DNA of 19,244 nucleotides from Macrostomum lignano (lineage: Eukaryota), in NCBI GenBank assembly GCA_002269645.1, contig NIVC01004346.1, positions 1 through 19,244 of the forward strand. Reading direction: 5' to 3'. The position numbers and the translations under genes are program-made. Below the pieces are notes generated by a model. That model did no database searches. It was given only the letters and a program-made list of their open reading frames with translations, and was not told the DNA's origin. This document shows positions 1,406 through 16,696 of the stretch, piece by piece (position 1 is the first letter of the stretch; every line of letters starts with the position of its first letter).

Positions 1406-1700
1406 AGTAGAAGGCATGAGGGGGCTTCTGGGACAAAATTTTTCACCTCCTCCATAATCCCATTAAATCCATCCATATTATCCCTGACAGAATCAGAAAA
1501 AAGGGGGGTCGCACTCGCTCCGAAAACGTCCTCCATAATCCACCTAAATCCATCCATATTATCCCCGACAGAATCAGAAAAAAAGGGGGGTCGCACTCGC
1601 TCACAAAACGTCCTCCATAATCCCATTAAATCCATCCATATTATCCCTGACAGAATCAGAGCATAACAGGTGTCCTACTTGCTCCGAAAACTTCGAACAT
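1406..1700 (+). repeat. Left TIR, containing three ~81-87-bp units (1451, 1532, 1614)
   Basis: 1406-1460 is the exact reverse complement of 16492-16546. Units begin tccataatcc(cat/acc)taaatccatccatattatccc. Confidence 0.95.
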
Positions 1701-1737
1701 GATCTGTCAATTTTCTCTTTACCTCCCAGTCCAGTAG

Positions 1738-1946
1738 TAGTTCAGTAGTATGCTCGAGTAAAAAGTTTAAAGAAATAATTATCTCGACTTCTAGGAAAAA
1801 ACCTTTCACCTCCAGTTTAATCAACATAGTTCAGTAGTATGCTCGAGTAAAAAGTTTAAAGAAATAATTATCTCGACTTCTAGGAAAAAACCTTTCACCT
1901 CCAGTTTAATCAACATAGTTCAGTAGTATGCTCGAGTAAAAAAGTT
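1738..1946. repeat. 89-bp direct tandem repeat, 2 full copies plus a ~31-bp partial
   Basis: Unit tagttcagtagtatgctcgagtaaaaagttt...caaca starts at 1738, 1827 and 1916; the full copies are identical. Confidence 0.95.
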
Positions 1947-2577
1947 ACACTTGTTCTCTGGGGCTCCTGCAGAGAGGACAGGTTTGCTCACCCTGAGCAA
2001 GTGCGGTTGTCAAACACTGGTTGCAGAAGACGCCCCTGCAACATGTAGTAAAAACAGGATCTTGTGGTTCGTGTTGACAATAGGGGCACAGCCCTCCAGA
2101 ATTTGACCAATCCGTAACCATTGGCTCAGCCTTCGGCTGGATCGGTGGTTGTGATGGACCAGGCTGCGACGCGGCCAGTTGGGTTGGCGGTTGAAGCCAT
2201 GTCGTCGGTGGCGGTGGCAAATTTGTTAACGCCGGCGATTCCACAGGCGGATGGTTAGGCAGTGGTGGATCGGCCTCTTGGAAGCGGATATTATCCGCTT
2301 CCTCTTCTTCCGCACGTCTTTCTTGATTGAATCTAGTTTGTGTACGAACGGTTTCTTCTAGATGGTGAAGTTTATTTCGCGAGGATCGATACTCCCGAAG
2401 ACGTTGCAAAAATAGTTCGTTTTCCTTATATTGCGGCTCCTCTTCTTGTAGAAATACTTCTACATTAATCCTTCTGAAGTCAGATTTTCTGTGGCTGGCT
2501 GTGAGGGGTCCTAGTTTACTATTTTGTTTCCGTTTCAATGCAATAACACGTTCCTTGAGAGTCGAAAGAGAAGGCAT
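1945..2577 (-). CDS. Accessory protein with C-terminal RING finger (putative E3 ubiquitin ligase) and a Pro-rich linker
   Basis: CPYC-x11-CC-x4-CNQC-x11-CPLC at the C-terminus; basic/helical N-terminus; 210-aa open ORF. Confidence 0.8.
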   Translation of the reverse strand: MPSLSTLKERVIALKRKQNSKLGPLTASHRKSDFRRINVEVFLQEEEPQYKENELFLQRLREYRSSRNKLHHLEETVRTQTRFNQERRAEEEEADNIRFQEADPPLPNHPPVESPALTNLPPPPTTWLQPPTQLAASQPGPSQPPIQPKAEPMVTDWSNSGGLCPYCQHEPQDPVFTTCCRGVFCNQCLTTALAQGEQTCPLCRSPREQV

Positions 2578-2665
2578 GTGCCAAGTGTGGCGAGACGTGC
2601 ACAGTTCTTCCTTGAATTTATACGCTCATACTCGTAGGCTATTTTTAGATATTCATACGTATAGA

Positions 2666-2750
2666 CCAACTAGGCGGGCCACATTCCGAGGCCAAATCGG
2701 CGGGCCGAGGCCAACTCGGCGGGCCAACTGGCCTCGCAATTTGGCCAATA
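2666..2750. promoter_or_regulatory. GC-rich cluster of three 15-bp CCAAMTMGGCGGGCC motifs upstream of the RING gene; candidate promoter
   Basis: Copies at 2666-2680, 2692-2706 and 2711-2725, followed by GGCCAAT at 2743-2749. Confidence 0.5.
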
Positions 2751-2936
2751 ATCAATATCAATCAAGGAGGGAATCTCAACATACACAGTCCATGCATGCT
2801 AATGGCGGCGAAGCGGTTGACTTTTTATTTTCTGCTCTTAGCTCTCTGGAGAATGAGAATCTCTCTTGTGCGCAACTCTTTAGGGAATAAAAAACTGTAC
2901 TTACTCAAATCCACACTTGCTCATGCCCTTCCCGAT

Positions 2937-3432
2937 TCAAGCGCCCCTTTCTACCCCCAGCTCTTTCAGCAGTCTTCCCAATTCATTGTTAGGAGCGCAC
3001 AAAATAAACTCTGCTCCCGTGCGTTCGCCCTCTCTCCCGTGCACTCGCCCTCTCTCCCAAACACCGCCCTCGGCGTACACCCCCAACCCCAGTTTTGTCT
3101 TACTAAAAATAACAGCTTTAACTAGCTTCCGAGCGATCGACTCACGAAATCCGCTTGAAGCCCCTATATTGTCTAGTCTCTTAAGCATTTCTTTGTCCCA
3201 GCGATTCTTCTCCTCAGGAAAATCTCTATATTTAACGTCGTGCCACATGCAGACAGAGTCTAGCTCGTTCACAGGCTCATGCCCAGGATTGGATTATTGT
3301 TTTTATCTAACTGTATTTCAAGTGGATTCAAAGGCCCGCAATATTTATAGCCGGGAAGTGTCCAGCCTTTGTTTGGATGAGGAAGCTTTTCTATCAGTCC
3401 ATGTGAATCTATTTTACCACCAGAGCGTGCAT
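2937..3432 (-). CDS. PLA2X: Parvovirus-type phospholipase A2 domain protein (PLA2X-like), frameshifted
   Basis: One frame gives WTLPGYKYCGPLNPL (Ca2+ loop); after a 1-bp shift at ~3287 it continues GHEPVNELDSVCMWHDVKY (catalytic HD) and KTKLGLG. ATG at 3432 requires a second inferred shift at ~3427. Confidence 0.85.
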
Positions 3433-3462
3433 TATTTTATTTAAAATTTTCTTTTTAAATAA

Positions 3463-4493
3463 ATGACAGATCAGAAACTTAAAAAACTCTACTACAGCGA
3501 CAAAGGATTCTTTGTAGGCAAAAATGCCGTTAGTAAACTCATGGAGCTGAGTAAGGAACCAAAAGCTACAGTAGAAAATGGCTCTCTAAGCAGGCTGTCT
3601 TTCAAGTCTATTTCCCACCAGTAAAATTTGAAAGGCCCATTTCAGTATTTATAAACCTAATGAGCGCACCAAGCAGATCTTTTGTTTCTCCCCAACGACT
3701 CAGGCTACAAGTATGCTCTTACAATTACAGACGTTGCTCCAGATATAAGGAAGCGAGACCGCTTAAGACGAAGAAGTCAGAAGCAGTTGCAGCCGCCCTC
3801 CAAGATATTTATAAAAACTCTCCGCTCACATACCCCCAAATCTTTATGACCGACCCGGGTAAGGAATTCATGGGTGTAGTGAAATCCCTTATGGAAAAGA
3901 AAAACACAGAGATTCGCTATGGCAGAACAAACTTGCACAGAGACCAGGCTTTTGTGGAAAGATTCAATCTAACTCTAGCCAAGAGACTATTCACTAAGCA
4001 GACAGCGCAAGAACTCAAACTGAGTGCGGGGCAGTACTATACCAAGTGGACAGAAAGACTCCCCACTGTTATAGAGCAACTGAACAATGAAGTCACACGC
4101 ATGACTGGATTGAAACCATCCCATGCAATTAAACAAGACACTGTCGAACTTAAGGCATCTCATAGAACAGACAACAACACGACAACCCCACACAACACAC
4201 AAACACAAAACACACCTCGAACTACCCTAAGCTTCCAGGAGTTGAATCACCATACATACTGACAAACTCTGAGTTTCTACGCTTTTTATATCTACCTGGA
4301 GAGCTAGAGAAGACACCAAAAGAAGAGCTACAGATCCATACTTCAGCCTTGATGTACATAAAATAGACAGACATTTTACCTCCGACTCCGGTGACTATTA
4401 CTTTTTATCTCAGCCTTTAACCCTAAATCCCCCACGCGGTCATTCACTAGAGCTGAACTCCTAGTGATACCAGCTGACACAGAAATTAATTAA
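3463..4493 (+). CDS. INT: Retroviral-like DDE (rve) integrase of Maverick type, frameshifted
   Basis: Stitched: HQADLLFLPND (D), FMTDPGKEF (D), QAFVERFN (E), and C-terminal KRRATDPYFS and RSFTRAELLVIP; stop TAA at 4491-4493. Shifts at ~3578, 3638, 3667, 3738 and in the 3' part. Confidence 0.93.
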
Positions 4494-4509
4494 AATATTA
4501 AAATAAAAA

Positions 4510-4827
4510 ATGACAAAGATTGAAACCAGAACCATCAATAAACTCAATAAAATCATTGAATCAAAGAAACCAGGTCTTATATCAATTAAAGGTGCCAAAG
4601 TAAAAGTCGATCCCACGCAGCAAATAGTTCAGTGTAATGAGCAAAGACACAGCATCACAGATGAAAAGTCAGGAGGAATCCTACCATTAGCAGCTCTTAT
4701 TCCGATCATTGCAGGCGCTGTAAGTGCCGCAGGTGGTGTAGCTGGAGGTGTAGCAACTGCTGTTAAAGCTGGGAATGATAGAGCCCACCAGCTGAATTGC
4801 AAAAGATTGCAAGAGACAAAGGTATAA
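4510..4827 (+). CDS. Small putative virion protein with a Gly/Ala-rich hydrophobic segment after a KSGG site; true end probably ~4885 after a frameshift
   Basis: KSGG|ILPLAALIPIIAGAVSAAGGVAGGVATAVK. The alternative frame after ~4790 reads AELQKIARDKGITIKAGEG. Confidence 0.65.
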   Translation: MTKIETRTINKLNKIIESKKPGLISIKGAKVKVDPTQQIVQCNEQRHSITDEKSGGILPLAALIPIIAGAVSAAGGVAGGVATAVKAGNDRAHQLNCKRLQETKV

Positions 4828-5034
4828 CAATTAAGGCAGGAGAGGGCTGCCCCGATCGTGATGATTGTGAGATGAAAATTCTGTAAGCAAGTCTGACATT
4901 GTCAAAGCATCATGACACTGCACAATGCTGGGTTTACAATAATGCGCATGTGATGAGGTTTAAAACCCCACTTTATCCAGCTTCATAAACCTAGCGCTAC
5001 TTATAGGATGTAGAAACAGTTCAACTTTTCTATC

Positions 5035-5048
5035 AGGGTGGTCACCCT
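5035..5048. promoter_or_regulatory. Palindrome AGGGT-N4-ACCCT upstream of PolB
   Basis: AGGGTGGTCACCCT ends 29 bp before the ATG at 5078; a second copy of the pattern lies at 16025-16038. Confidence 0.4.
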
Positions 5049-5077
5049 CAAATTTTTTTTATATTTTAGAGAAAAAA

Positions 5078-8000
5078 ATGCCAAAAGCTAATCCAGCAAA
5101 AGATTTAGTCAACAAACATTTTTCAAAAGGCGTCTCATTTCAAGACAAAAGTAATTTACTAAGAGAAGCATGTAAACAAAAGTTTAACACCGACCCTGGT
5201 CACCTGGGAAGCTATGAAAAACAGTTGGAAATCATCAATCAATTAGAATCCAACCAGTATGCGCCTATACAAAATCCTGCAAAGGAACACCAAGAGAGGA
5301 GTCGCAACTTAGTTAACAAATACGAAACTCTCACTGGTGAAAAAGCAAAGTACCCACAAAATAAGCAGGAACAAGAGAAATTAGAGCAATTAATCCATTT
5401 AAAAGAGTCGGAGCTTGCCATGAAGAGATTAATTTTGCACAGAGGAAGTTTACAGAACATTACATAGAGTACACAATCCCAATTAACGGCACCACCGCAA
5501 ACATCTACGACTATAAAGACAGCATCCAATCAGTTGTTGATCACACACTCAAAACACGCAAGACCTTTAAACTACAGATATCATTCAAGATTGCGTTTTA
5601 TATGCCTGCAAAACCCACTGAGCATCTCGAGTATTACATGACAACAAAGGCAAAGCCATTCACCCCTACAGACACACTGGATCCTTTCCTTCAAGATGTC
5701 ACTAAGAAAATTGAAGCGTTTACATCCAGAGGTTCCGGATGGGTCGTGGGAGGGATTCAAAGAGCGACTGTCATGGTCATGAAATATGACCCACTTAAAG
5801 CCTCCTCTTATATAGAGCTCCCGCATAAGCTAGCCGGCAAAAAAGCTTGCATAAATGTTAAAAATAAAGACAATTGCTGTGCTCTATGGGCAGTTCTTTC
5901 TGCACTTCTTTAGTGTCCCTCACCACCCCGAAAGAACCTCAAATTATCAAAATTATTTCAACTACTATCTCATCGAATGCGAAAAGAAGGGAATCAGGTT
6001 TGACAAAGGAGGCTTGGCGATCTCTCAGATCCCAAAGCTAGAAGAAGTGTTTAATAACAAAATTAGAATCACAGTCTTTGAGTGGAGTGAAAAAACTGAG
6101 AAAGTTCAACCGGTCAGATGTAGCAAAGACGTTTTAGATCCTGAGGGGAAAAGGCGGACTGAAGTGGATCTTCTAGTGATTGGTAATTTACTAGAGGAGG
6201 CTCACTATGTTTGGATTAAAGATCTTTCAAGACTCATTCACAAGCAGTTGAATAATCATCACGAGGCTGTTGCCATCTGCCGCTTGTGCCTTAAGCATTA
6301 CAGTGGACCTGAACGCTTTGAAAAGCTAACAGAGCATGAATTATCATGCGAGGATCACCCGACAAACTGCTCTCTTCCTTCAGCTGAAGAGAAGTATCTC
6401 CGGTTTAAGAACTATCACAAGATGGAGAAGCTCCCATTTGTTGTATATGCTGATTTCGAATGCTCAATCGTGCCAGAAACTCAAAAACAAACTCAAACTC
6501 AAAAACATGTCCCCAATTCAGTAGCATATGCCTTTATTAATACAAAAGGACTTGTTGAGTATAATTATTTCTTTGGAGAGCAGTGTGTGGAGCAGTTTAT
6601 TGCCAGAATGTTAGAGTTGCAAAAAGTGATTAGCACCCTTCAACCTGTTCCAATAATGATGACTGAGGAGGATGAAAGCAATTTCCTATCAGCAACTCAT
6701 TGCCACATCTGCAGGAAACATTTAACTTGCACTAATATTAAAAACCCCACCGTTAGGGACCACTGCCACTTTACTGGGAAATTTAGAGGTGCAGCGCATA
6801 ACACCTGTAATCTAAAGCTAAAATCGAACATTCATGATCTAACGATATTTTGTCACAACGCAAAGAACTATGACATGCATTTAATAGTTGAAAAAATCGG
6901 CATGATTCCAGACATACACCTTGATTGCATCGCAGAGAACAAGGAGAAGTTTAAGTGTGTTGATATTAAACAGGATAATTCGGGTACAGGTAAAATAAGA
7001 CTGAAGGATTCATATCAATTTCTAGCTGCCAGTCTAGACGAACTAAGCAAGAATCTAAAAGATGAACAATGTACATATACAAAGATGTTTGCAAGTAAAA
7101 TTAACAACAGTGATGAATCATTTAAACTTGAGAAAAAGGCTTCTACCCCTATGAAAATATTACTGGGTATCACGTATTTGAAGAAGGTTTACCACCACAG
7201 GAGAAGTTCTTTTCAAAGCTAACAGACTCTGGAATCTCTGACAAAGACTATGAGCACGCGAAGCATGTCTATAATTACTTTAATTGTCAAAACTTCTTCC
7301 AGTATCACCTGCTTTACCTCTTCACAGATGTGTTTCTGCTGGCTGATGTGTTTGAAACCTTCAGATACACCTGGTACACAGCATATGGCCTCGATCCAGC
7401 ACATTATGTGTCTCTGCCTGCCACTAGCTGGGAATCTTTGCTTAAAATGAAATGGGATCAAGATCCAGATTGGTACATTGAACTTCTTACAGACATTGAC
7501 ATGTACAATTTTGTCGAATCGTCAAAGCGAGGGGGATCTCAATTTGCGTTAACAGGTATGCAAAAGCAAACAATCCCTACATTGAATCTTACAATAAGGA
7601 GCAGCCCTCAAACTACATTACTTACTTGGACGCTAATAATCTCTACGGGTGGGCGATGAGTCAAGATCTTCCAGTTAGAGATTTTCGATGGCTACCCTCA
7701 TCAGAACAAAGTGGGACTTTTCATTGGCTGCCATTTATGAGGTTGATGTTTACATTCCACCAGAGCTTCACGACTATTTCTCTGACTTTCCACCCTTCCC
7801 AGAGAACATCAAGTGCCCGAAAATAATCGAAACTCCCAATGATAATAATGGAACTTGGCACCTGTCAGGAACAGAAAAAGAACATACAGAGAAACTAACA
7901 CAGAATCTAAACAACAAGACACGTTACAAAATCCATTACAAACTGCTTCAGTATTTTATCTCACTTGGTTGCAGGGTCACCAAAGTTCACAGGGCTCTTA

Positions 8001-8885
8001 CATTTACAGAGGAAGCGTGGATGAAACCCTACATTGATAAGAACACCCAGTTTAGGACCAAAGCAACCAACGACTTTGACAAGAACCTCTTTAAGTTGGC
8101 CAACAACTCTGTCTATGGCAAGACTCTTGAGAATGAGCGGAAAAGAACAAACCTGAAACTTGTTACCTCATCAGAGCCTGCTGTTATTCAGGCAAATATG
8201 TCAAAGCCAACATTCAAAGAACTCCATATCTTTAATAGCTACTTAGGTGTGATCATATTTTACAAAACCAAGGTGACGCTGCGCAAGCCGATCTATACAG
8301 GTGTCACTGTTCTCGACGAATCAAAACGTCTGATGTACCAGTTCTTCTATGGCATGAAGCAGCAGTACAAGGATAAAATGAAACTCTTGTACACTGACAC
8401 AGACAGTTTTATTATGGACATTCAAACAGAAGACATTTATCAGGACATGCTGCAGCAAAAAGATTTGTTTGACTTGTCTGAGTATGATGAATCTTGCAGG
8501 ACACAGAATGGCGATCAAGTGTTTGACGCCACTAACAAGAAAGTGATTGGGAAAATGAAGGACGAGATTGCTGGTGACATAATCACTGAATTCATTGGGT
8601 TGAGAGCAAAGTCCTATTTTATAAAATGTGAGTCGTCAGACCCAATAAAAAATCAAAGGGAATTCCGAAACGTGTGTTAGGAAGGAAATTAATGAAGCTG
8701 AATACAGAGACGCCTTGAATTGCAACAAAAAGACATCACATGAGTTCTCAAAGCTACAATCTAAAAACCATATTATTCACACAATTCAGCAAAAGAAGAT
8801 TGGACTGTCAGGTGCAGATAACAAGAGATTCATTTTTGATGACAATATCAACAGTCTACCGTTCGGGCATTGGAGATTAGGTTAG
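5078..8885 (+). CDS. pPolB: Protein-primed family B DNA polymerase (~1270 aa when stitched), frameshifted
   Basis: GSGW...KKACINVKNKD, exonuclease YADFEC and CHNAKNYD, EndoVII-like CHIC..RDHCHFTGKFRGAAHNTCN, motif A YLDANNLYG, motif B KLANNSVYGK, motif C YTDTDS, GKMKDE, GLRAKSY, and ending LPFGHWRLG* (TAG 8883-8885). Joins ORF-track pieces 5078, 5602, 5855, 7330, 7626 and 7688. Confidence 0.96.
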
Positions 8886-8926
8886 GTTTAGGAGGTTAGG
8901 AGGTGGAGGAGGTTTAGGTTTTTAGG
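8877..8926 (+). repeat. G-rich tract with six TTAGG pentamers and GGAGG units
   Basis: TTAGG at 8877, 8882, 8888, 8896, 8914 and 8922. Confidence 0.8.
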
Positions 8927-8958
8927 TTTAAGAGAAAGTTTAATAAACCTCATAAAAA

Positions 8959-9359
8959 ATGACGACAAATAACTTTCTTGAAGATTTGGCTAACGAACTG
9001 GAAATCCCAAACTTTAGAGGAATATTTATGAGGGACACTCTGCCTGATTTTCCTCTAAGAAAGAATGCGGCATCATGAACTTTGACACCACCGATAAGCC
9101 AGGATCTCATTGGGTTTGCTGGGTGATTGATCCCGATCGCAAGCACAAGTGTTATTACTTCGATAGCTATGGGACGGCAGTACCAGAAGAGCTAAGAAAT
9201 TATATGAAGGGAAAAAATAATAAAAAAATTTATCGCTCAGACTTTATTCTCCAAGGTCTTAGCAGTGATATTTGCGGTGAGCTGTGCATGACTGTTTTGT
9301 ATGCAATGACCAAAACACGAAAGACCTACAAGGAAATTATTCGTACCTGTGTTTCATAG
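8959..9359 (+). CDS. PRO: Adenain-like (C5-type) cysteine maturation protease, one frameshift at ~9062
   Basis: NFRGIFMRDTLP...CGIMNFD...GSHWV (His), YFDSYG (Asp), QGLSSDICGELC (Gln, Cys). Confidence 0.93.
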
Positions 9360-9363
9360 GGGT

Positions 9364-10019
9364 TCATTGTGCATTTCTCGTTGTACTTCTCGTTGTCCTT
9401 CTTTCCACATAATGTTGAAGAACTTTCTCGAGTTCATTTCTCAGCTGACTCATGTCATCAGTACCGACCATGTTCAAGTTCATTCGAATTGATTGTTCAT
9501 AAAGATCCTGAATGGTTTTGAACTCATCCTCTGAAATGAACTTATCCTCGATTGCCCTTGAAATGTACCCTATGATTGATGTGTGCACCCCTTTCTCTTT
9601 TACTTGCTTCTCCTGTAGCTGCTTTAGTTTTTTTCGCCTGTTTCGCGCTAATGCTCCAGTAATTGCTGAAATAAGTCCACATGCAGCACCCACAGAGCCG
9701 AGTGGATTGCGATTGGGGCTGTGATGACTGGCAACACTGAGACAGCTGCAGCAGATCCAGATAGAACAGACACAGATCCTAGAATCATATTGCTGTAGTC
9801 GAAAAATTTACAGTGGTTGTCATAGCGCTTAATTTTCTTTGTGTTGTGGAAAATATTTTTTTCAAGATCATCGCGCATTTTTTGAATCTCCACCAGTCGA
9901 AACTGTTGAGAGTTACAAGTAATGACGGGGTAGAGTTTTTGTTGCTCATATTGGGGTGCACTAGGTGCACTAGGTGTTGTGGGAGCATTCTGATCATAAA
10001 GAGAATTTTGAGCATCCAT
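9364..10019 (-). CDS. Maverick-type protein with a central hydrophobic hairpin, frameshift at ~9700
   Basis: Stitched: LYP..FRLVEI...KKIKRY...ILGSVSVLSGSAAAVSVLPVITAPIAI(P)LGSVGAACGLISAITGALARNRRKKLK...ISRAIEDKFISEDEF. Pattern recalled from Polinton proteins. Confidence 0.7.
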
Positions 10020-10123
10020 TTTTTAAGGGAATTTTTAAAAAAAATCGACAACTAGTTGGTGGTGTTAGATTTGTTTTACGTTGATTGCTTCGTCTGCAGT
10101 GCGCAACAGGTCTCTGAATCTGC

Positions 10124-10854
10124 CTATTCATTATCTGTGAGCTCCATTCTACGCATGATCTCAAACAAGTCGGTTGGATCACTTGTTTCCCTTGTGGTCT
10201 GTGGTGCCTCTTCAGCGTCAATGTTTTTGAGATTATGCAAGCGTTCAAGACGACCGATTCTTCTCACCGATTTCTGCCATTCGGTAAAAACTAAATCTAC
10301 AAAGACTTTAATTGCAGTAATTCTTACTTTGATTTGATCATGCAACGCTGTTGACTGAGTCATGAACTCTTCTAAATTCCTCACTTTACCTGTGTTGGTT
10401 GCGACGTTTTCTTTAATTCTATCATGCAATGCTGTTGACTGGTTCATGAACTCTTCTAAATTATTCACTTTAGCTGTGTTTGTGAAAACTCCTCCTTCAA
10501 GAATACGCATCCGTCTATCAATGGAATTTCCCAGAAGATTAACTGTCGATCTAAGCCGTTGATTTGCGAGACTATCGAAGTTATTTCTGACCTTAGTTCA
10601 TTAGTTGCGTTTAACAACGGCACATAAAGCTTATCACTTTCAAACTTCTGCCTAGCTACTTTAAGCCTGAGATCTTCCATGTTTATTTGCAACTGGTGCA
10701 TGGAGCGCTCTAGGGCTTTCAGTCTGTTTTTATTCAGTTTGATCTCTGGGATCTCTTCGTCGCTGTTGATATATCGCCTGTCAAGGATGGATATTTGAGC
10801 TGATGTAAGAGCGCTGTTGCCAGAAATGGATTCACCTGCAAAGTTTATTGACAT
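10124..10854 (-). CDS. Coiled-coil protein with an internal 28-aa duplication, frameshift at ~10540
   Basis: Joins ORFs 10465-10854 and 10124-10510; heptad-like segments; 84-bp-period DNA repeat at 10337 and 10421. Confidence 0.6.
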
Positions 10855-10870
10855 CTTTTAATAGCAAATT

Positions 10871-11670
10871 TTAAATTACAGTTCTTTTTTCTTTGCTGAT
10901 AATCACAAACTGGTAAGGCTGATTCCACTTGTCATAGCAAAGATTAACGAATTCCTCTTGTGAAATCTTTCTGCTTGAGTTTTTTGTTGGATTTATGAAA
11001 TAGGCAGGCGCAATGACCTCATTGTAAAATCTTTTTAACCTGTCCTGTGGAATGGTTGGAAACAGGAGAATCAGATTGCAGTTCCCACGAATTGTTTTGT
11101 TCGGGAGCTCGAACCAGTTCTGTGCAATGTAAATTACATTACAATTGTTATGTCGCCCTCTTGTAAAATAGTTTTCTATCTGCTTCTGTGGGCCTGTCAT
11201 ACAATCATCAAAGACGATCAAATGCTTTCTCCCCTTTTCTAGCTCATCTGGTTGGGGTAGAAGTTTGGTCTTTGGATCAGCCTGTGGATCTCCATAGGTG
11301 AACACTTTAATGTTCTGCCATTTTTCATTGTCTTTGAGGTGCTTTGATATTCAGCAGCTACAATTTCTGGGTTACTGGGAAGGCTCATTTGGTTATTAAA
11401 ACATGCAATAATGTCCTCTTTGTTCAGCTTGTTTTGAAGCCCTGCAATCAGCATTCTATACTCATCTTGATACAGTGTGGGAGAGTAGATGTGCAGAGTG
11501 TCATAGTCGATAAAGCCAGGTCTAAGAAGCATGTTAAAGACTCTGAATGTTTTACCTGAACCTGATGAACCAACAACAATGCATCTGAAGTGACTCGGGA
11601 TTGACTCGTGATGAGAAAACTTAATCTGATTACGCGTCCAGTGAGGATTGAAGTCGTTTGAAAAGTCCAT
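10871..11670 (-). CDS. A32/FtsK-like genome packaging ATPase, frameshift at ~11320
   Basis: Walker A VVGSSGSGKT, Walker B LIVFDDC, and FTRGRHNNCNVIYIAQ...IRGNCN; ATG in AAAAAATG context at 11670. Confidence 0.94.
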
Positions 11671-11705
11671 TTTTTCTATGAAAAAAAAATTAAATAATAA
11701 ATCAT

Positions 11706-11810
11706 TTAGATGTGTCATTTCGGGACTTGAATGTGTCGTTTTGGGACTTAGATGTGTCATTTTGGGACTTAGATGTGTCATTTTGGGACTTAGATGTGTC
11801 ATTTTGGGAC
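11706..11810. repeat. 21-bp tandem repeat, 5 copies (ttagatgtgtcattttgggac)
   Basis: Units at 11706, 11727, 11748, 11769 and 11790; the last three are identical. Confidence 0.97.
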
Positions 11811-11853
11811 TAGTCTTATACTCTTACATGTCTTGTACCCTCGGAAAGTACCT

Positions 11854-12234
11854 TTAGTCAAATTTGAAACCACTTCCTTTTTTAATGCTTGCTCTCATCT
11901 TCTCATAGACTGCAGGGTCCACACTGTCTGGATTTGGGGCCAGCGGAGGCCAGCGGAGTTGAATCTCTTGTTTAGGTGTTACAGTATCCTTTATCTTTTT
12001 GGCTGCTGTGGCTACACTGCCAGCCGCTTCGGCAACGTTCTTGATGTTCTCTTTGTTCTCTCCAATGACCTTAAAAATCTTAGCCCCCTGAGCGATCAAA
12101 TCAGCAAGGCCATTCCCAGAGCGTTCTTTTCTTGGATAGTGGCCTGCAGGGAAAAGTCCAGATCCGCGTTTAATGAGATTAAGTTCCTCTTTGTCATAGT
12201 ATTTGTCAATGTCTTTTTCGAAAATAAGAGGCAT
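11854..12234 (-). CDS. Small basic putative core protein (pVII/pX-like precursor) with three GxG motifs
   Basis: MPLIFEKD...KRGSGL...RSGNGL...KKGSGFKFD*; start chosen at AAAAAAATG (12234) rather than the ORF-track start at 12354. Confidence 0.65.
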   Translation of the reverse strand: MPLIFEKDIDKYYDKEELNLIKRGSGLFPAGHYPRKERSGNGLADLIAQGAKIFKVIGENKENIKNVAEAAGSVATAAKKIKDTVTPKQEIQLRWPPLAPNPDSVDPAVYEKMRASIKKGSGFKFD

Positions 12235-12247
12235 TTTTTTAAATAAA

Positions 12248-13494
12248 TTATTTTTTGTTGAACCGCGAAAGCAGAAGCTCTCTCGCCCTCTTATCGATGT
12301 ATTTTCTCTCAAGCATTTTGTCCAGGATGTTGACAAATTCTTTTCTATTTTCATCTTTCATTCCGGTCTTTGCCGCTCCTAGAAGAACCGCTACTCGCTT
12401 GTAGATTTCAGAAATTCCTTTTCCAGTTGAGGGCGGTTGGTCTTGGGTTGTGGAGTTGGTTGGGCTTGTAGCTGCTGGGGAGGTGATGCAAAAGACTGCT
12501 CACTTTCAGAGATGGAACTGTCATGTGGTGCCTGTCTTTGTTGAGGTGTGAAAACTCTTTGATTGATTCTATTCATTCGATCTGGAGAGTGTTGTTCTAA
12601 GCGTTGCCAGTCTGTTGGGTTTTGTTTCTTATATTCAGCTACTTTCAAAGGGTCTAACTGCTCGAGTTGACTGAGTACTTGTTCTTCTGTGAAATGTTGC
12701 TGCTGTTGTGGCGGTCGTTGTTGTTGTTGTGGTTGCTGTTGCTGTTGTTCTAGATATTTCATCTGATCAATGACTTCCCCCTGATCTGGCAAACCAAACC
12801 ATTGTTTAAAGTGCTTGTACTTTTTGAATTTAGTCAGGTTGACACCGCCATTGTACATGTGTTTCAGAACTTCTGGGACCTTTAGTATTTCTATATCTCT
12901 AGCAAGAGAAAAAGTCACTAGATCTCTGTAGTTCTTTAGCTGCTTGTCCGAGATTCTCTCTTGGTTCTTGGTCATAAAAGTCAGTAAGGCGTCTGTGAAA
13001 GGAATTTTCATAGCTTCTGAGCCTTTGACAACAGAAATATTTTCCTTATTTATGTCGATATAATATTCCACTGGTTCATTATAAATGTTTTTTCTCCACA
13101 TACTTATTCCAAATACATATTTCCCATCATGTTCGACACGCTCTACTGGTCCAAAAATGTTATCTGTCACTTTTAGTTGCTGTTGTGGTTGTGATTGTTG
13201 TGGTTGTGATTGTTGTGGTTGCGGTTGTATCTGTCGTTGCGGCTGTATCTGTGGTGCTTCTGGAATTTTTCCCAAAGCCTTTTGCACCTGGGTTTCCTGT
13301 ATGTCGTCGATAGTTTCTTTGACCTGATCAATATTTTTCTTAGCTTCTCCATACCCGGGTTTATGAAACTCTGTGGCTGCTTGGACAAACTCATTGTAGG
13401 ATTGTTGCTCCTTATTTATTAGCCTGGTAACTCTCTTTTCTGCCTGCGCCAGCTTTTCTAGTTCAGATATCTGCTGTGTACTTTTTCGCTTCAT
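12248..13494 (-). CDS. Gln-rich Maverick-type protein (possibly the PZ-type family), frameshift at ~12415
   Basis: 367-aa ORF with DNIFGP and poly-Q tracts. The shifted frame continues EISEIYKRVAVLLGAAKTGMKDENRKEFVNILDKML...RFNKK* (stop 12248-12250), resembling a C-terminal LLG..AG...E...ILD motif recalled from Polinton proteins. Confidence 0.7.
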
Positions 13495-13524
13495 TTCTTA
13501 TTTTATTTTATTTTTAGTTAAAAA

Positions 13525-14819
13525 ATGAACGACCCACTGACACCAGTTTTCTACAAAATTAACAAGCCTATTTTGAGTGATGATAGCACAATCAAAGCGA
13601 CTCAGGTAAGAGTTCCCAGTCAGGAAAATCAGAATGAAACTAATCTTGGTCCTGGCCAAACACTGACATTTACATACAATGGATGTTCGTCTTTGGTCAG
13701 TGTCCACAGTCTAAGGAGCGGCTTCTATATGACGTTTCAATTCAAAACTAAAGGAGGCGCAGACGCCGCTCATGCTAATGATGATCTACACAATGCGGAT
13801 GTCGCACTAACCAGTAATTTTGGGCTTATATGTTCAAAGAGTTTAATGTGTCCAATGGAAGTACAGAGTTGGAAAGAATAGCAAACTTTGGTGTGGTCTA
13901 TGATACCCAGTGCTTGATTGAGAACCCGGATTTTATTCAGATGGGGAGCGGTGCTGGATTCATCCCCAATGAACAGACAGGAGATGAGAATGACCCTGGT
14001 TACAAAAAGAGAAAGGAGAGATACAACTATGCTCTTGCTGGTGAGAACGATGCTGCTAAGAATCCGTTGTTTAGGTCTGTAGATATTTTTGTACCTTTGA
14101 GGTTTATGAGTGGTTTCTGTAATAGTTTCAATCGGTTGACAAGCAACTTTAGCTACACATTTAGACTGACTAGAGATGATCGGAACAGAGGAATTTGGTC
14201 GGGGGCCAATCATACATCGATGGAGATTAAGCTAACTAGCGTGGAGCTGTACTTAGAAATTATTGAGCCCAAGACTGCACTCAAAGCTGAATACTTGAAG
14301 GCGATTGAGAAAGACATTGATGTTGCTTATACAGCTTATATGTGCAGAGATGAGCGGAATGACGCAAGACACAATATTTGCATTAAAGAAGGCTCCTGTA
14401 GCAATCCAAGGTACATTATTGTCACTATGAGGAATACAACTAATGTAGGTAGATATCTACATGGAAACATTCGATCGATTCAGCATGAGATCAGTGACAA
14501 TTTATACCCTGCATTGCCACAAAATGGGAATTTCTCGGAGAACAAGATTAGTAAGTTTTACAATGAACTGTCGGACTTGGCTGTCAAAGAGAATAACGGT
14601 ATTGTTTTGACAACATTGCAGTATAAAAAACTATATCCAATATTTGGTATTGATGTGACTGCTAGACAAATGCCTACAGACAATAGCCCTGTTAACATTG
14701 TGACTAATATCGAGCGGAAAGAATTTGGTGCCGCAACGGCTGTTGATCTGTTTATTATCTATGCATTTGAGAGGAAGATCAAGGTCAATATGATCAACAA
14801 CTCGTCTAGTAAAGTTTGA
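13525..14819 (+). CDS. MCP: Major capsid protein (double jelly-roll, hexon-like), frameshift at ~13828
   Basis: ~430 aa when stitched; beta-rich pattern with FVPLRFMSGFC, FRLTRD, NPRYIIV, LYPIFGIDVT; directly upstream of the penton gene. Confidence 0.88.
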
Positions 14820-14841
14820 ATAATTTTTTTCAATAAAAAAA

Positions 14842-15699
14842 ATGGAAGCCATAGCCGAAAGACTAAACAACATTGTTTCACACTCTAAGGAGAGCATTCC
14901 AATCACTGTAGCGGGTCGCATTACTGAGTCAAACGGAATCTTCATTCAAAAATTGGAGCAACCACTTCGTTTGGATCCCGAGGCGAATTACCACGTCTAT
15001 CTCAATGATTTCACTGGGTGGTCAAATGTTCCCAATGTGACAGCGGAAAATAACAAGTTTTATTACAAATGGAAGCGTACTACAACAGAGGTTGTGATAT
15101 TTCCTGTCAGCACACAGAGCGTGGATACTTATAATTACTTCTTGGAGAACGTCTTCACTAAACGAAAGCATTTTGAGATACCGGATGAAAGCAAACCAGA
15201 AAATAAACTGTTCCCTGTTAGATTAACTTATGATCTAACTGTCATGAGAGTTGTCTTGCAAGTTCATAAGGACGCAGAGGTAGAGTTTAAAGATGGCACT
15301 TGGTATCGCGAGTTGGGATTTGAAAAGAGAGTTTATGGTGGCGCCACAGACCAAAGCCCGCTGCAGGCGCCTGGCACTGTTGCTGTGTCCCGGCTAATAT
15401 CCGGTATGTACTTGGCGCCAAATATCGCTGACATTGTCAAAGGCTTGAATATATTAATTCGCAGCAATCTGAGCCATGATTGGATATTCAAGGGCAAACG
15501 AAGCAACATACTTTTTAACATTTCAAACTCTGTTGCTGGTGGCAAAATGCTTGTGCAAAAGCCAAACCCCGTGAAAAGAGTGATTCTGAGTAATAGAGAG
15601 ATACATGAAATCATTCTGCAGTTTGAAACAGAGGATGGAGTTGGTGTCGATTTTAACGGGGAAGAGTTTGTGCTAACAATTATTATTGAGAGAATGTGA
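14842..15699 (+). CDS. mCP: Minor capsid protein (penton, single jelly-roll)
   Basis: Intact 285-aa ORF with PLRLD..Y.V.L, SNVPNVTAENNKFYY, ILIRSNL, and C-terminal IHEIILQFETEDG..VDFNGEEFVLTIII. Confidence 0.88.
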   Translation: MEAIAERLNNIVSHSKESIPITVAGRITESNGIFIQKLEQPLRLDPEANYHVYLNDFTGWSNVPNVTAENNKFYYKWKRTTTEVVIFPVSTQSVDTYNYFLENVFTKRKHFEIPDESKPENKLFPVRLTYDLTVMRVVLQVHKDAEVEFKDGTWYRELGFEKRVYGGATDQSPLQAPGTVAVSRLISGMYLAPNIADIVKGLNILIRSNLSHDWIFKGKRSNILFNISNSVAGGKMLVQKPNPVKRVILSNREIHEIILQFETEDGVGVDFNGEEFVLTIIIERM

Positions 15700-15760
15700 G
15701 TCGTCTTCGGGCTTGTAAAAGTACGATATAAGCCGCCAGGTACATCCTTGTAGTTGGCTA

Positions 15761-15997
15761 CTACAACTGCCTTATAACTTCAGCAAGGTTATAATAGCTG
15801 TCAAAATCGTTAATGACTACTCCGTGTTTTTCAAACCAGTGTCTTTGGAGAGCTAGATTAATATTAGGGACATTGATATCAACGTCGGGCCAATATTTTC
15901 TCATGTACTCGCTGCATTCCTTCTTGCATCGGTACTTGCTCTTGAAATTAGGCTCATGCGCTTTGTAATAAGAACCTGGAGAGACAACTGGAAACAT
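15761..15997 (-). CDS. Small hypothetical protein (~78 aa)
   Basis: Open frame MFPVVSPGSYY... with AAAAATG start context and an upstream palindrome; no motif recognised. Confidence 0.45.
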   Translation of the reverse strand: MFPVVSPGSYYKAHEPNFKSKYRCKKECSEYMRKYWPDVDINVPNINLALQRHWFEKHGVVINDFDSYYNLAEVIRQL

Positions 15998-16024
15998 TTT
16001 TAGAGAAAATTTAGATTTTTTCAA

Positions 16025-16038
16025 AGGGTAAGGACCCT
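16025..16038. promoter_or_regulatory. Palindrome AGGGT-N4-ACCCT upstream of the minus-strand small ORF
   Basis: AGGGTAAGGACCCT lies 27 bp from the ATG at 15997. Confidence 0.4.
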
Positions 16039-16167
16039 GCGCTGATGATTTAAAGTCTTAGGGATCTGGTTTCACGTTGCGGATTGAATGTGGGGAGAAG
16101 AATGCAGATTATTTTCTGATTGTTTCGAAGATGCTATGGGTGGATGTCAGTGGATTAAAATGGGATT

Positions 16168-16546
16168 ATATTCGAAGTTTTCGGAACAAGTAGGACACCT
16201 GTTATGCTCTGATTCTGTCAGGGATAATATGGATGGATTTAATGGGATTATGTTCGAAGTTTTCGGAGCAAGTGCGGCCCCTCCCCTTTTTCATGATTCT
16301 GTCAAGGATAATATGGATGGATTTAATGGGATTATGGAGGACGTTTTGTGAGCGAGTGCGACCCCCCTTTTTTCTGATTCTGTCGGGGATAATATGGATG
16401 GATTTAATGGGATTATGGACGATGTTTTGTGAGCAGGTGCGACCCCCCTTTTTTTCTGATTCTGTCAGGGATAATATGGATGGATTTAGGTGGATTATGG
16501 AGGAGGTGAAAAATTTTGTCCCAGAAGCCCCCTCATGCCTTCTACT
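16168..16546 (-). repeat. Right TIR, containing four ~81-86-bp units plus a degenerate partial unit at 16141-16170
   Basis: Units at about 16420-16501, 16339-16419, 16253-16338 and 16171-16252; reverse complement of the left TIR; ends CTACT. Confidence 0.95.
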
Positions 16547-16547
16547 A

Positions 16548-16696
16548 GGATGGAACCCAGATCGTGAATGGTGCCAAGATCAAAAGTGGCGCCAAGATCA
16601 AGAGTGACATCAAGATCAAGAAGCGCCAAGATCAGGAATGGCGCCAAGATCAGGAATGGCGCCAAGATCAGGAATGGCGCCAAGATCAAGAATGGC
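16548..16696. repeat. 18-bp minisatellite (gaatggcgccaagatcag), 8 units including a degenerate first unit, plus a partial
   Basis: Units at 16548 (degenerate), 16566, 16584, 16602, 16620 (16 bp), 16636, 16654, 16672 and a partial at 16690. Confidence 0.93.

Follow-up and report, generated by a model that had tools for sequence, protein, structure and literature searches.

The 19,244-nucleotide contig NIVC01004346.1 of the flatworm Macrostomum lignano (assembly GCA_002269645.1), referred to as a whole as the window, carries at positions 1406-16546 a Maverick/Polinton element of 15,141 bp, an identification about which we have practically no doubt. A sequence-only reading had described an endogenous adintovirus-like Maverick, and Pfam searches, tblastn comparisons and structure matches confirm that all the replication and morphogenesis genes it named are present. 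We consider it probable that these positions hold one copy of the element with a full replication, integration and capsid set, that the copy belongs to a likely recently active multi-copy family, and that the frameshifts interrupting its genes are likely assembly errors. The description of the element as full-length and complete thus stands for the gene set and not for the reading frames, as six of its seven core genes are frameshifted.

Both ends of the element open with AGTAG. The inverted ends (1406-1704 and 16246-16546, about 300 bp) are about 93% identical, with 276 of 296 aligned bases the same, and they bear out the matching termini reported earlier, with boundaries exactly at 1406 and 16546. 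The left terminal inverted repeat (TIR; 1406..1704, plus strand) starts with AGTAG and holds 82-bp subterminal tandem units, and the right one (16159..16546, minus strand) has subterminal units of 81-84 bp. We compared the window with short-read contigs from four runs, X6, X7 and X8 among them. Contigs with unrelated flanks terminate at 1406, seven of them in X6 and five in X8 (flank agreement about 0.5), which indicates that the left end is real and common to a family.

The replication and integration genes were analyzed with a Pfam search covering 30 open reading frame (ORF) pieces of the element. The protein-primed PolB gene (5078..8885, plus strand) lies in seven ORF pieces, the first of which (5078-5467) is tied to the remainder by ORF overlap only, and comprises a terminal-protein-like region, a vOTU domain, an exonuclease with an Endonuclease-VII-like insert and a palm. 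The motifs Exo I-III and Pol A-C are present. Pfam recognized Endonuclease_7 in the PolB pieces and, below its cut-off, gave weak PolB2 (PF03175) matches at E 6e-4 and 7e-4; PF03175 matched none of nine full-length PolB relatives, and a precomputed PF03175 label is attached to 19 of 120 relatives. Among the PolB matches bearing a species name, 24 of 25 are from insects, and a PDB sequence search with PolB returned nothing significant. The rve-type DDE integrase (3463..4493, end approximate, plus strand) is in several frameshifted pieces with its D, D and E motifs, and tblastn with the rve ORF of the IMG/VR locus L010 matched it at E 6e-10. Across the element, all 17 catalytic motifs sought were found in translation, as had been claimed; with patterns picked by eye, this is a presence check and not a blind test.

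Does this PolB lack an OTU domain, as the sequence-only reading had supposed? We aligned the 90 of 120 listed PolB relatives that reach at least 1,100 aa, and the columns of the window's Asp, Cys and His residues were conserved in 87, 88 and 90 of these 90 sequences, respectively. The Cys and His are about 108 codons apart (the relatives' median is 95), after a GSGW-containing region and before the exonuclease, which is where the sections of Krupovic et al. (2024, PMC11161782) cited here place the vOTU domain. Because the three residues are conserved and their position matches this placement, PolB is, judged from its sequence, an OTU-bearing polymerase.

The virion module is complete as a gene set. 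The double-jelly-roll major capsid gene (13525..14819, plus strand) matches the Pfam DJR-like_dom at E 3e-8. A natural relative of this capsid, 75-82% identical to the two pieces in the window, folds at a pLDDT (predicted local distance difference test) of 92, and this fold matches the PBCV-1, Sputnik and mavirus capsids; a PDB sequence search with the capsid gave nothing significant. The single-jelly-roll penton gene (14842..15699, plus strand) is a single unbroken ORF with no Pfam match, assigned on a structure model. This model aligns with the mavirus penton (Z 9.8, root-mean-square deviation (rmsd) 12.4, 202 aligned) and with a capsid chain of PBCV-1 (Z 9.8, rmsd 2.7, 110 aligned), and its BFVD matches are headed by minor capsid proteins. 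The A32/FtsK-type packaging ATPase (10871..11670, minus strand; frameshift near 11,340) has its Walker A and B motifs and arginine finger and was matched by tblastn with L003 at E 1e-31. The adenain-type (C5) maturation protease (8959..9359, plus strand; frameshift near 9,050) matches Peptidase_C5 at E 4e-5.

Two further virion genes bear on the PLA2X label given to the element earlier, which was mistaken. The parvovirus-type phospholipase A2 (PLA2) gene (2937..3432, minus strand; Phospholip_A2_4 in two frames, frameshift near 3,280) and the gene for a core protein with an adenovirus pX-like domain (4510..4827, plus strand; Adeno_PX, E 2e-7) are two separate genes, and no pX-like stretch was seen behind PLA2 when the three minus-strand frames were read by eye. 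A small basic ORF with xGxG motifs (11854..12354, minus strand) has no Pfam or NCBIfam match and is a candidate protease-matured core protein. The Gln-rich protein at 12248..13494 (minus strand) is in two overlapping frames; the Maverick 'PZ' label for it was not confirmed, as its pairwise similarity to a candidate counterpart was not significant. NCBIfam gave sub-threshold matches only.

How many copies does the family have? Contig depth, with the right-flank contig as baseline, is a rough guide that may be off twofold. Relative to this flank, depth was 55.8 (X6) and 55.3 (X8) for the PolB pieces, 33 for the piece at the ATPase end, 13.6-18.7 for capsid and penton, and 1.3-1.7 for the region of a RING-finger gene near the left end. 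The summed depth over the capsid genes (13483-15408) was 3.0-9.5-fold below that of the replication genes in four of four runs. These values suggest that the replication half is present about 55 times, this capsid type about 15 times and the RING cassette once or twice. Because depth differs between the RING, replication and capsid regions, we infer a young, mosaic family in which the majority of copies would have a different capsid type or no capsid, and the RING cassette would be rare. Module exchange among Polintons has been described before, in the sections of PMC8502044 and PMC10748475 cited here. The excess read depth that the sequence-only reading had proposed looking for was not seen: the ratio of element to flank was alike in X6 and X8, and no run showed an excess.

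As written, the integrase, PolB, protease, ATPase, major capsid and PLA2 genes are all frameshifted, and only the penton gene is unbroken. With relatives as tblastn queries, we counted five frame changes in PolB and a single one in each of the capsid, protease, ATPase and integrase genes, and overlapping ORF pieces suggest further breaks. In-frame stops away from the alignment ends are absent from all 25 segments that tblastn aligned (about 3,800 codons, some genes counted twice). Six contig pieces over the replication genes, among 32 listed of about 16,900, differ from the window by 7 gaps and 5 substitutions over 2,614 nt. Single-copy DNA is gapped against the window too, with 7 gaps and 2 substitutions in the RING region (X6) and 26 gaps in 638 nt of the left flank, and the host M13 peptidase gene in that flank is likewise fragmented. 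The 12 gap rows listed (97 more exist) all point the same way, and most of them are seen again in each of the four runs. The absence of stops, the few substitutions, the gaps in single-copy DNA and the one-directional, recurring gaps lead us to regard the frame breaks as probably, for the most part, an artefact of assembly.

Several observations count against the interpretation that we favor. Homopolymers are not over-represented at the gap sites (6 of 12 lie in runs of two or more, the background being 62%), and a homopolymer explanation of the gaps was rejected for this reason; the high-copy contigs reflect the family majority and not this copy; and in X8 the far right flank comes out clean. 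On the side of the genes, the Pfam matches of the integrase (rve, E 0.027) and the ATPase (Pox_A32, E 0.002) are below cut-off, the penton model has a pLDDT of 64, and the major capsid fold was predicted on a relative and not on the sequence of the window. No contig of X6 or X8 bridges the left junction, a hole that by itself proves nothing. Polinton insertions carry a target-site duplication of about 6 bp, and no duplication of 4-8 bp, with at most one mismatch and at most three bases from the ends, was found here; this weakens the claim of one authentic insertion and not the gene-based assignment. Finally, the life cycle that we outline below is drawn wholly from published work on the group and general knowledge, whereas the ends, genes, motifs, folds and multiple insertion sites were observed. 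Could this copy simply be a dead provirus whose frameshifts are real mutations? The sequence as written has ten or more frame changes, which speak for it together with the gap sites without homopolymer enrichment and the lack of a target-site duplication. We nevertheless judge decay to be quite improbable: nonsense codons are lacking, the replication half has few substitutions relative to the family contigs, and a like gap pattern is found in single-copy flank and RING DNA.

Two other explanations, both of which we hold to be rather unlikely while giving them clearly more weight than decay, concern the integrity of the copy and the way the family spreads. The window may combine two insertions, with its left part from the first and its right part from the second, through an assembly chimera or ectopic recombination. 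This possibility is compatible with our preferred explanation; it would account for the absent target-site duplication and for part of the mosaic depth, with its steps between the RING, replication and capsid regions, and it agrees with the left junction being unbridged in two of two runs. Moreover, X7 and X8 have a contig that extends out of an 18-bp tandem array, joining 16690 back to 16549, and may represent an empty site, its upstream part being the array and not the left flank of the window. However, this joint fits a longer higher-order tandem array as well, so that we read it as either of the two, and the two TIRs, 93% identical to each other, are complete. Alternatively, the family may spread only as an intracellular self-synthesising transposon, its capsid module being vestigial or borne by a minority, with most copies having lost or replaced it. 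The capsid depth, 3.0-9.5-fold lower than that of the replication genes in all four runs, is in line with this, and evidence of free virus was not obtained: no pile-up of contig ends was listed, although contigs cannot show free ends. Yet capsid and penton are full length and 53-82% identical to relatives in other assemblies, and the low depth also fits other capsid types falling under the 92% threshold for placing contigs on the window.

For the family with a full gene set that we favor, a life cycle can be proposed. PolB would replicate the excised linear DNA starting at the ends, with the fused terminal-protein domain as primer; this domain would be cleaved away by the vOTU domain, and the rve integrase would reinsert the element DNA. 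The ATPase would package the DNA into double-jelly-roll/penton capsids, which the adenain would mature by acting on the pX-type core proteins, and PLA2 may help membrane entry. The RING gene with its host-type promoter may serve as an exchangeable early host-modulating cassette. We place the chances that the family can form particles at even. The earlier suggestion of a virion-competent element is not supported for the sequence as written, the genes being broken, and may hold for the family. The most far-reaching reading seems unlikely to us: the element would be a flatworm polintovirus that is active, forms particles and has a capsid of a lineage not yet described, and its single replication module (about 55 copies) would be combined with alternative capsid modules (this one in about 15) and with exchangeable end cassettes, a host-promoter-driven RING ligase as immediate-early gene and an RNase T2 fragment.

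The capsid lineage deserves separate consideration. A word-indexed search returned nine close relatives of the capsid at 42-74% identity, none informatively named, and in a full scan only 3 of the 100 matches listed reached E 1e-30. A quick tree of 55 rows places the window capsid together with eight unnamed sequences on a long branch (stem 0.96, SH-aLRT 100), and for the penton, 12 relatives at 52-63% identity were found, likewise unnamed. No locus related by capsid or penton was found in metagenome contigs, viral contigs or phages, and the literature searched on Polintons and Mavericks in flatworms gave no record pointing to this family, Repbase and most subscription journals lying outside the scope. 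As far as the databases searched go (Repbase not among them), the capsid would represent an undescribed sub-lineage of the known class PF21738. Of the undescribed lineage suggested by the sequence-only reading, it is thus the capsid lineage, without named close relatives, that alone looks undescribed; the element itself is of a well-known kind.

Among the accessory genes, the RING gene (1945..2577, minus strand) encodes a protein of 210 aa with a C-terminal C3HC4 RING finger (zf-C3HC4_3, E 4e-8), a predicted E3 ligase. Upstream lies a promoter-like region of host type (2618..2760, minus strand), with TATAAA at -46 and three CCCGCC boxes at -102 to -147; CCCGCC does not occur in the remaining 13.1 kb. 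Of 12 gene starts checked, 11 have only leaders of 80-100% A+T, the RING gene alone having TATA and GC boxes. Since the region is near single-copy in the contigs, we read it as an exchangeable, low-copy cassette with a putative promoter, which may act early to modulate the host. The idea of a TBP/TATAAG late box was discarded, with no TBP Pfam match and only A+T leaders at 11 of the 12 starts. Between the left TIR and this gene, an 89-bp tandem unit in 2.3 copies (1738..1942) contains AGTAG, and 35 nt of it resemble TIR positions 1425-1459, with a similarity score equalled by none of 2000 resamples and none of 1064 interior windows; these units are possibly relics of the terminus of a related element.

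At the other end, an RNase T2-like ORF of 78 aa (15761..15997, minus strand) weakly resembles the half with the second catalytic motif and is without the first. Its Pfam match (E 0.006) is below cut-off, and T2-family RNases make up its top three PDB matches (best E 0.019). Within this ORF, the contigs that stem from other copies diverge, with loose ends at 15833-15966. In the interior, a protein with hydrophobic segments (9364..10019, minus strand) is in two overlapping frames with no family match at cut-off, and an 84-bp repeat lies within one or two small ORFs (10124..10854, minus strand) without an assigned family. Five 21-bp tandem units (11706..11811) lie upstream of the ATPase, separating its start from the core gene, and one X8 contig skips 60 bases of this array. 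A group I intron/GGNCC system was also considered and rejected: Rfam gave no match, and GGNCC in the PLA2 gene is uninterrupted. GGNCC has 26 sites in the window and is not among the 15 most under-represented palindromes.

The left flank (1-1204) holds a host M13 (neprilysin-like) peptidase gene with its HExxH motif, in pieces and apparently intronless here, and its depth in X7 and X8 is about twice single copy. The right end is adjoined by the 18-bp tandem array (16547-16696). The CpG observed/expected ratio is 0.63 in the element and 0.91-1.02 in the flanks.

Particles or capsid peptides in the host, if found, would bear on whether animal Mavericks still spread as viruses. The element itself is unsurprising: capsid-complete Mavericks are widespread in animals, and flatworm insertions have already been reported. 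Its value is that it documents an unnamed sub-lineage of capsids together with a young family of multiple copies, between which the capsid and end cassettes vary.

How, then, does the element compare with known systems? It has the gene content and form of Adintoviridae/Eupolintoviridae: an OTU-PolB, an rve integrase, an adenain, an FtsK/A32 ATPase, a hexon and a penton, inverted terminal repeats and integration in animal DNA, together with PLA2 and pX-like domains, a likeness to the adintoviruses in the sections of Starrett et al. (2021, PMC8502044) used here. It differs from them in that PLA2 and pX are unfused, and in its major capsid, whose identity to the top 50 BFVD matches does not exceed 15%, none of these matches being a close named adintovirus hexon. 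According to these sections, the PolB of both Alpha and Beta adintoviruses carries OTU; PLA2X, a PLA2 with C-terminal pX, marks Alpha and not Beta virion modules; the Alpha (Mayetiola) class has a pfam03175-type PolB, and the Beta (Terrapene) class a divergent OTU-PolB, less than 30% identical to it, together with GasderminX/Cupiennin genes, detected by HHpred. The argument for a beta-type element fails because both of its premises, the missing OTU domain and the PLA2X, are wrong. Neither the PLA2X of the Alpha type, pX being on a separate gene, nor a Pfam match to gasdermin or Cupiennin among the 30 ORF pieces (Starrett et al. having used HHpred) was found. The weak pfam03175 match fits the Beta wording, while PLA2 and the 24 of 25 insect matches lean towards Alpha; the element may belong to either class. 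If PolB proves to be of the Beta class, the element would be the reciprocal of the Alpha-PolB/Beta-virion chimeras in these sections of Starrett et al.

Of 30 viral contigs, three (the IMG/VR loci L003, L008 and L010) pair this PolB class with PLA2, penton and ATPase, and matches to the RING and T2-like ORFs were found in none of the 30 viral loci. These three arthropod-type Mavericks share with our element the PolB class with the Endonuclease-VII-like insert (29-38% identity), the PF21738 capsid class, and PLA2 and pX on separate genes, but they differ in gene order, and their capsid is about 23% and their penton 20-23% identical to those of the window. The domain order of PolB, assigned here by residue conservation and position, is like the TP-vOTU-EXO-PALM order given for the pPolB of polintons in the cited sections of Krupovic et al. 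(PMC11161782). Finally, insertions of Orthopolintovirales in Rhabditophora were reported earlier (10.1101/2025.04.19.649669), which puts polintovirus insertions in flatworm genomes on record before the present element.

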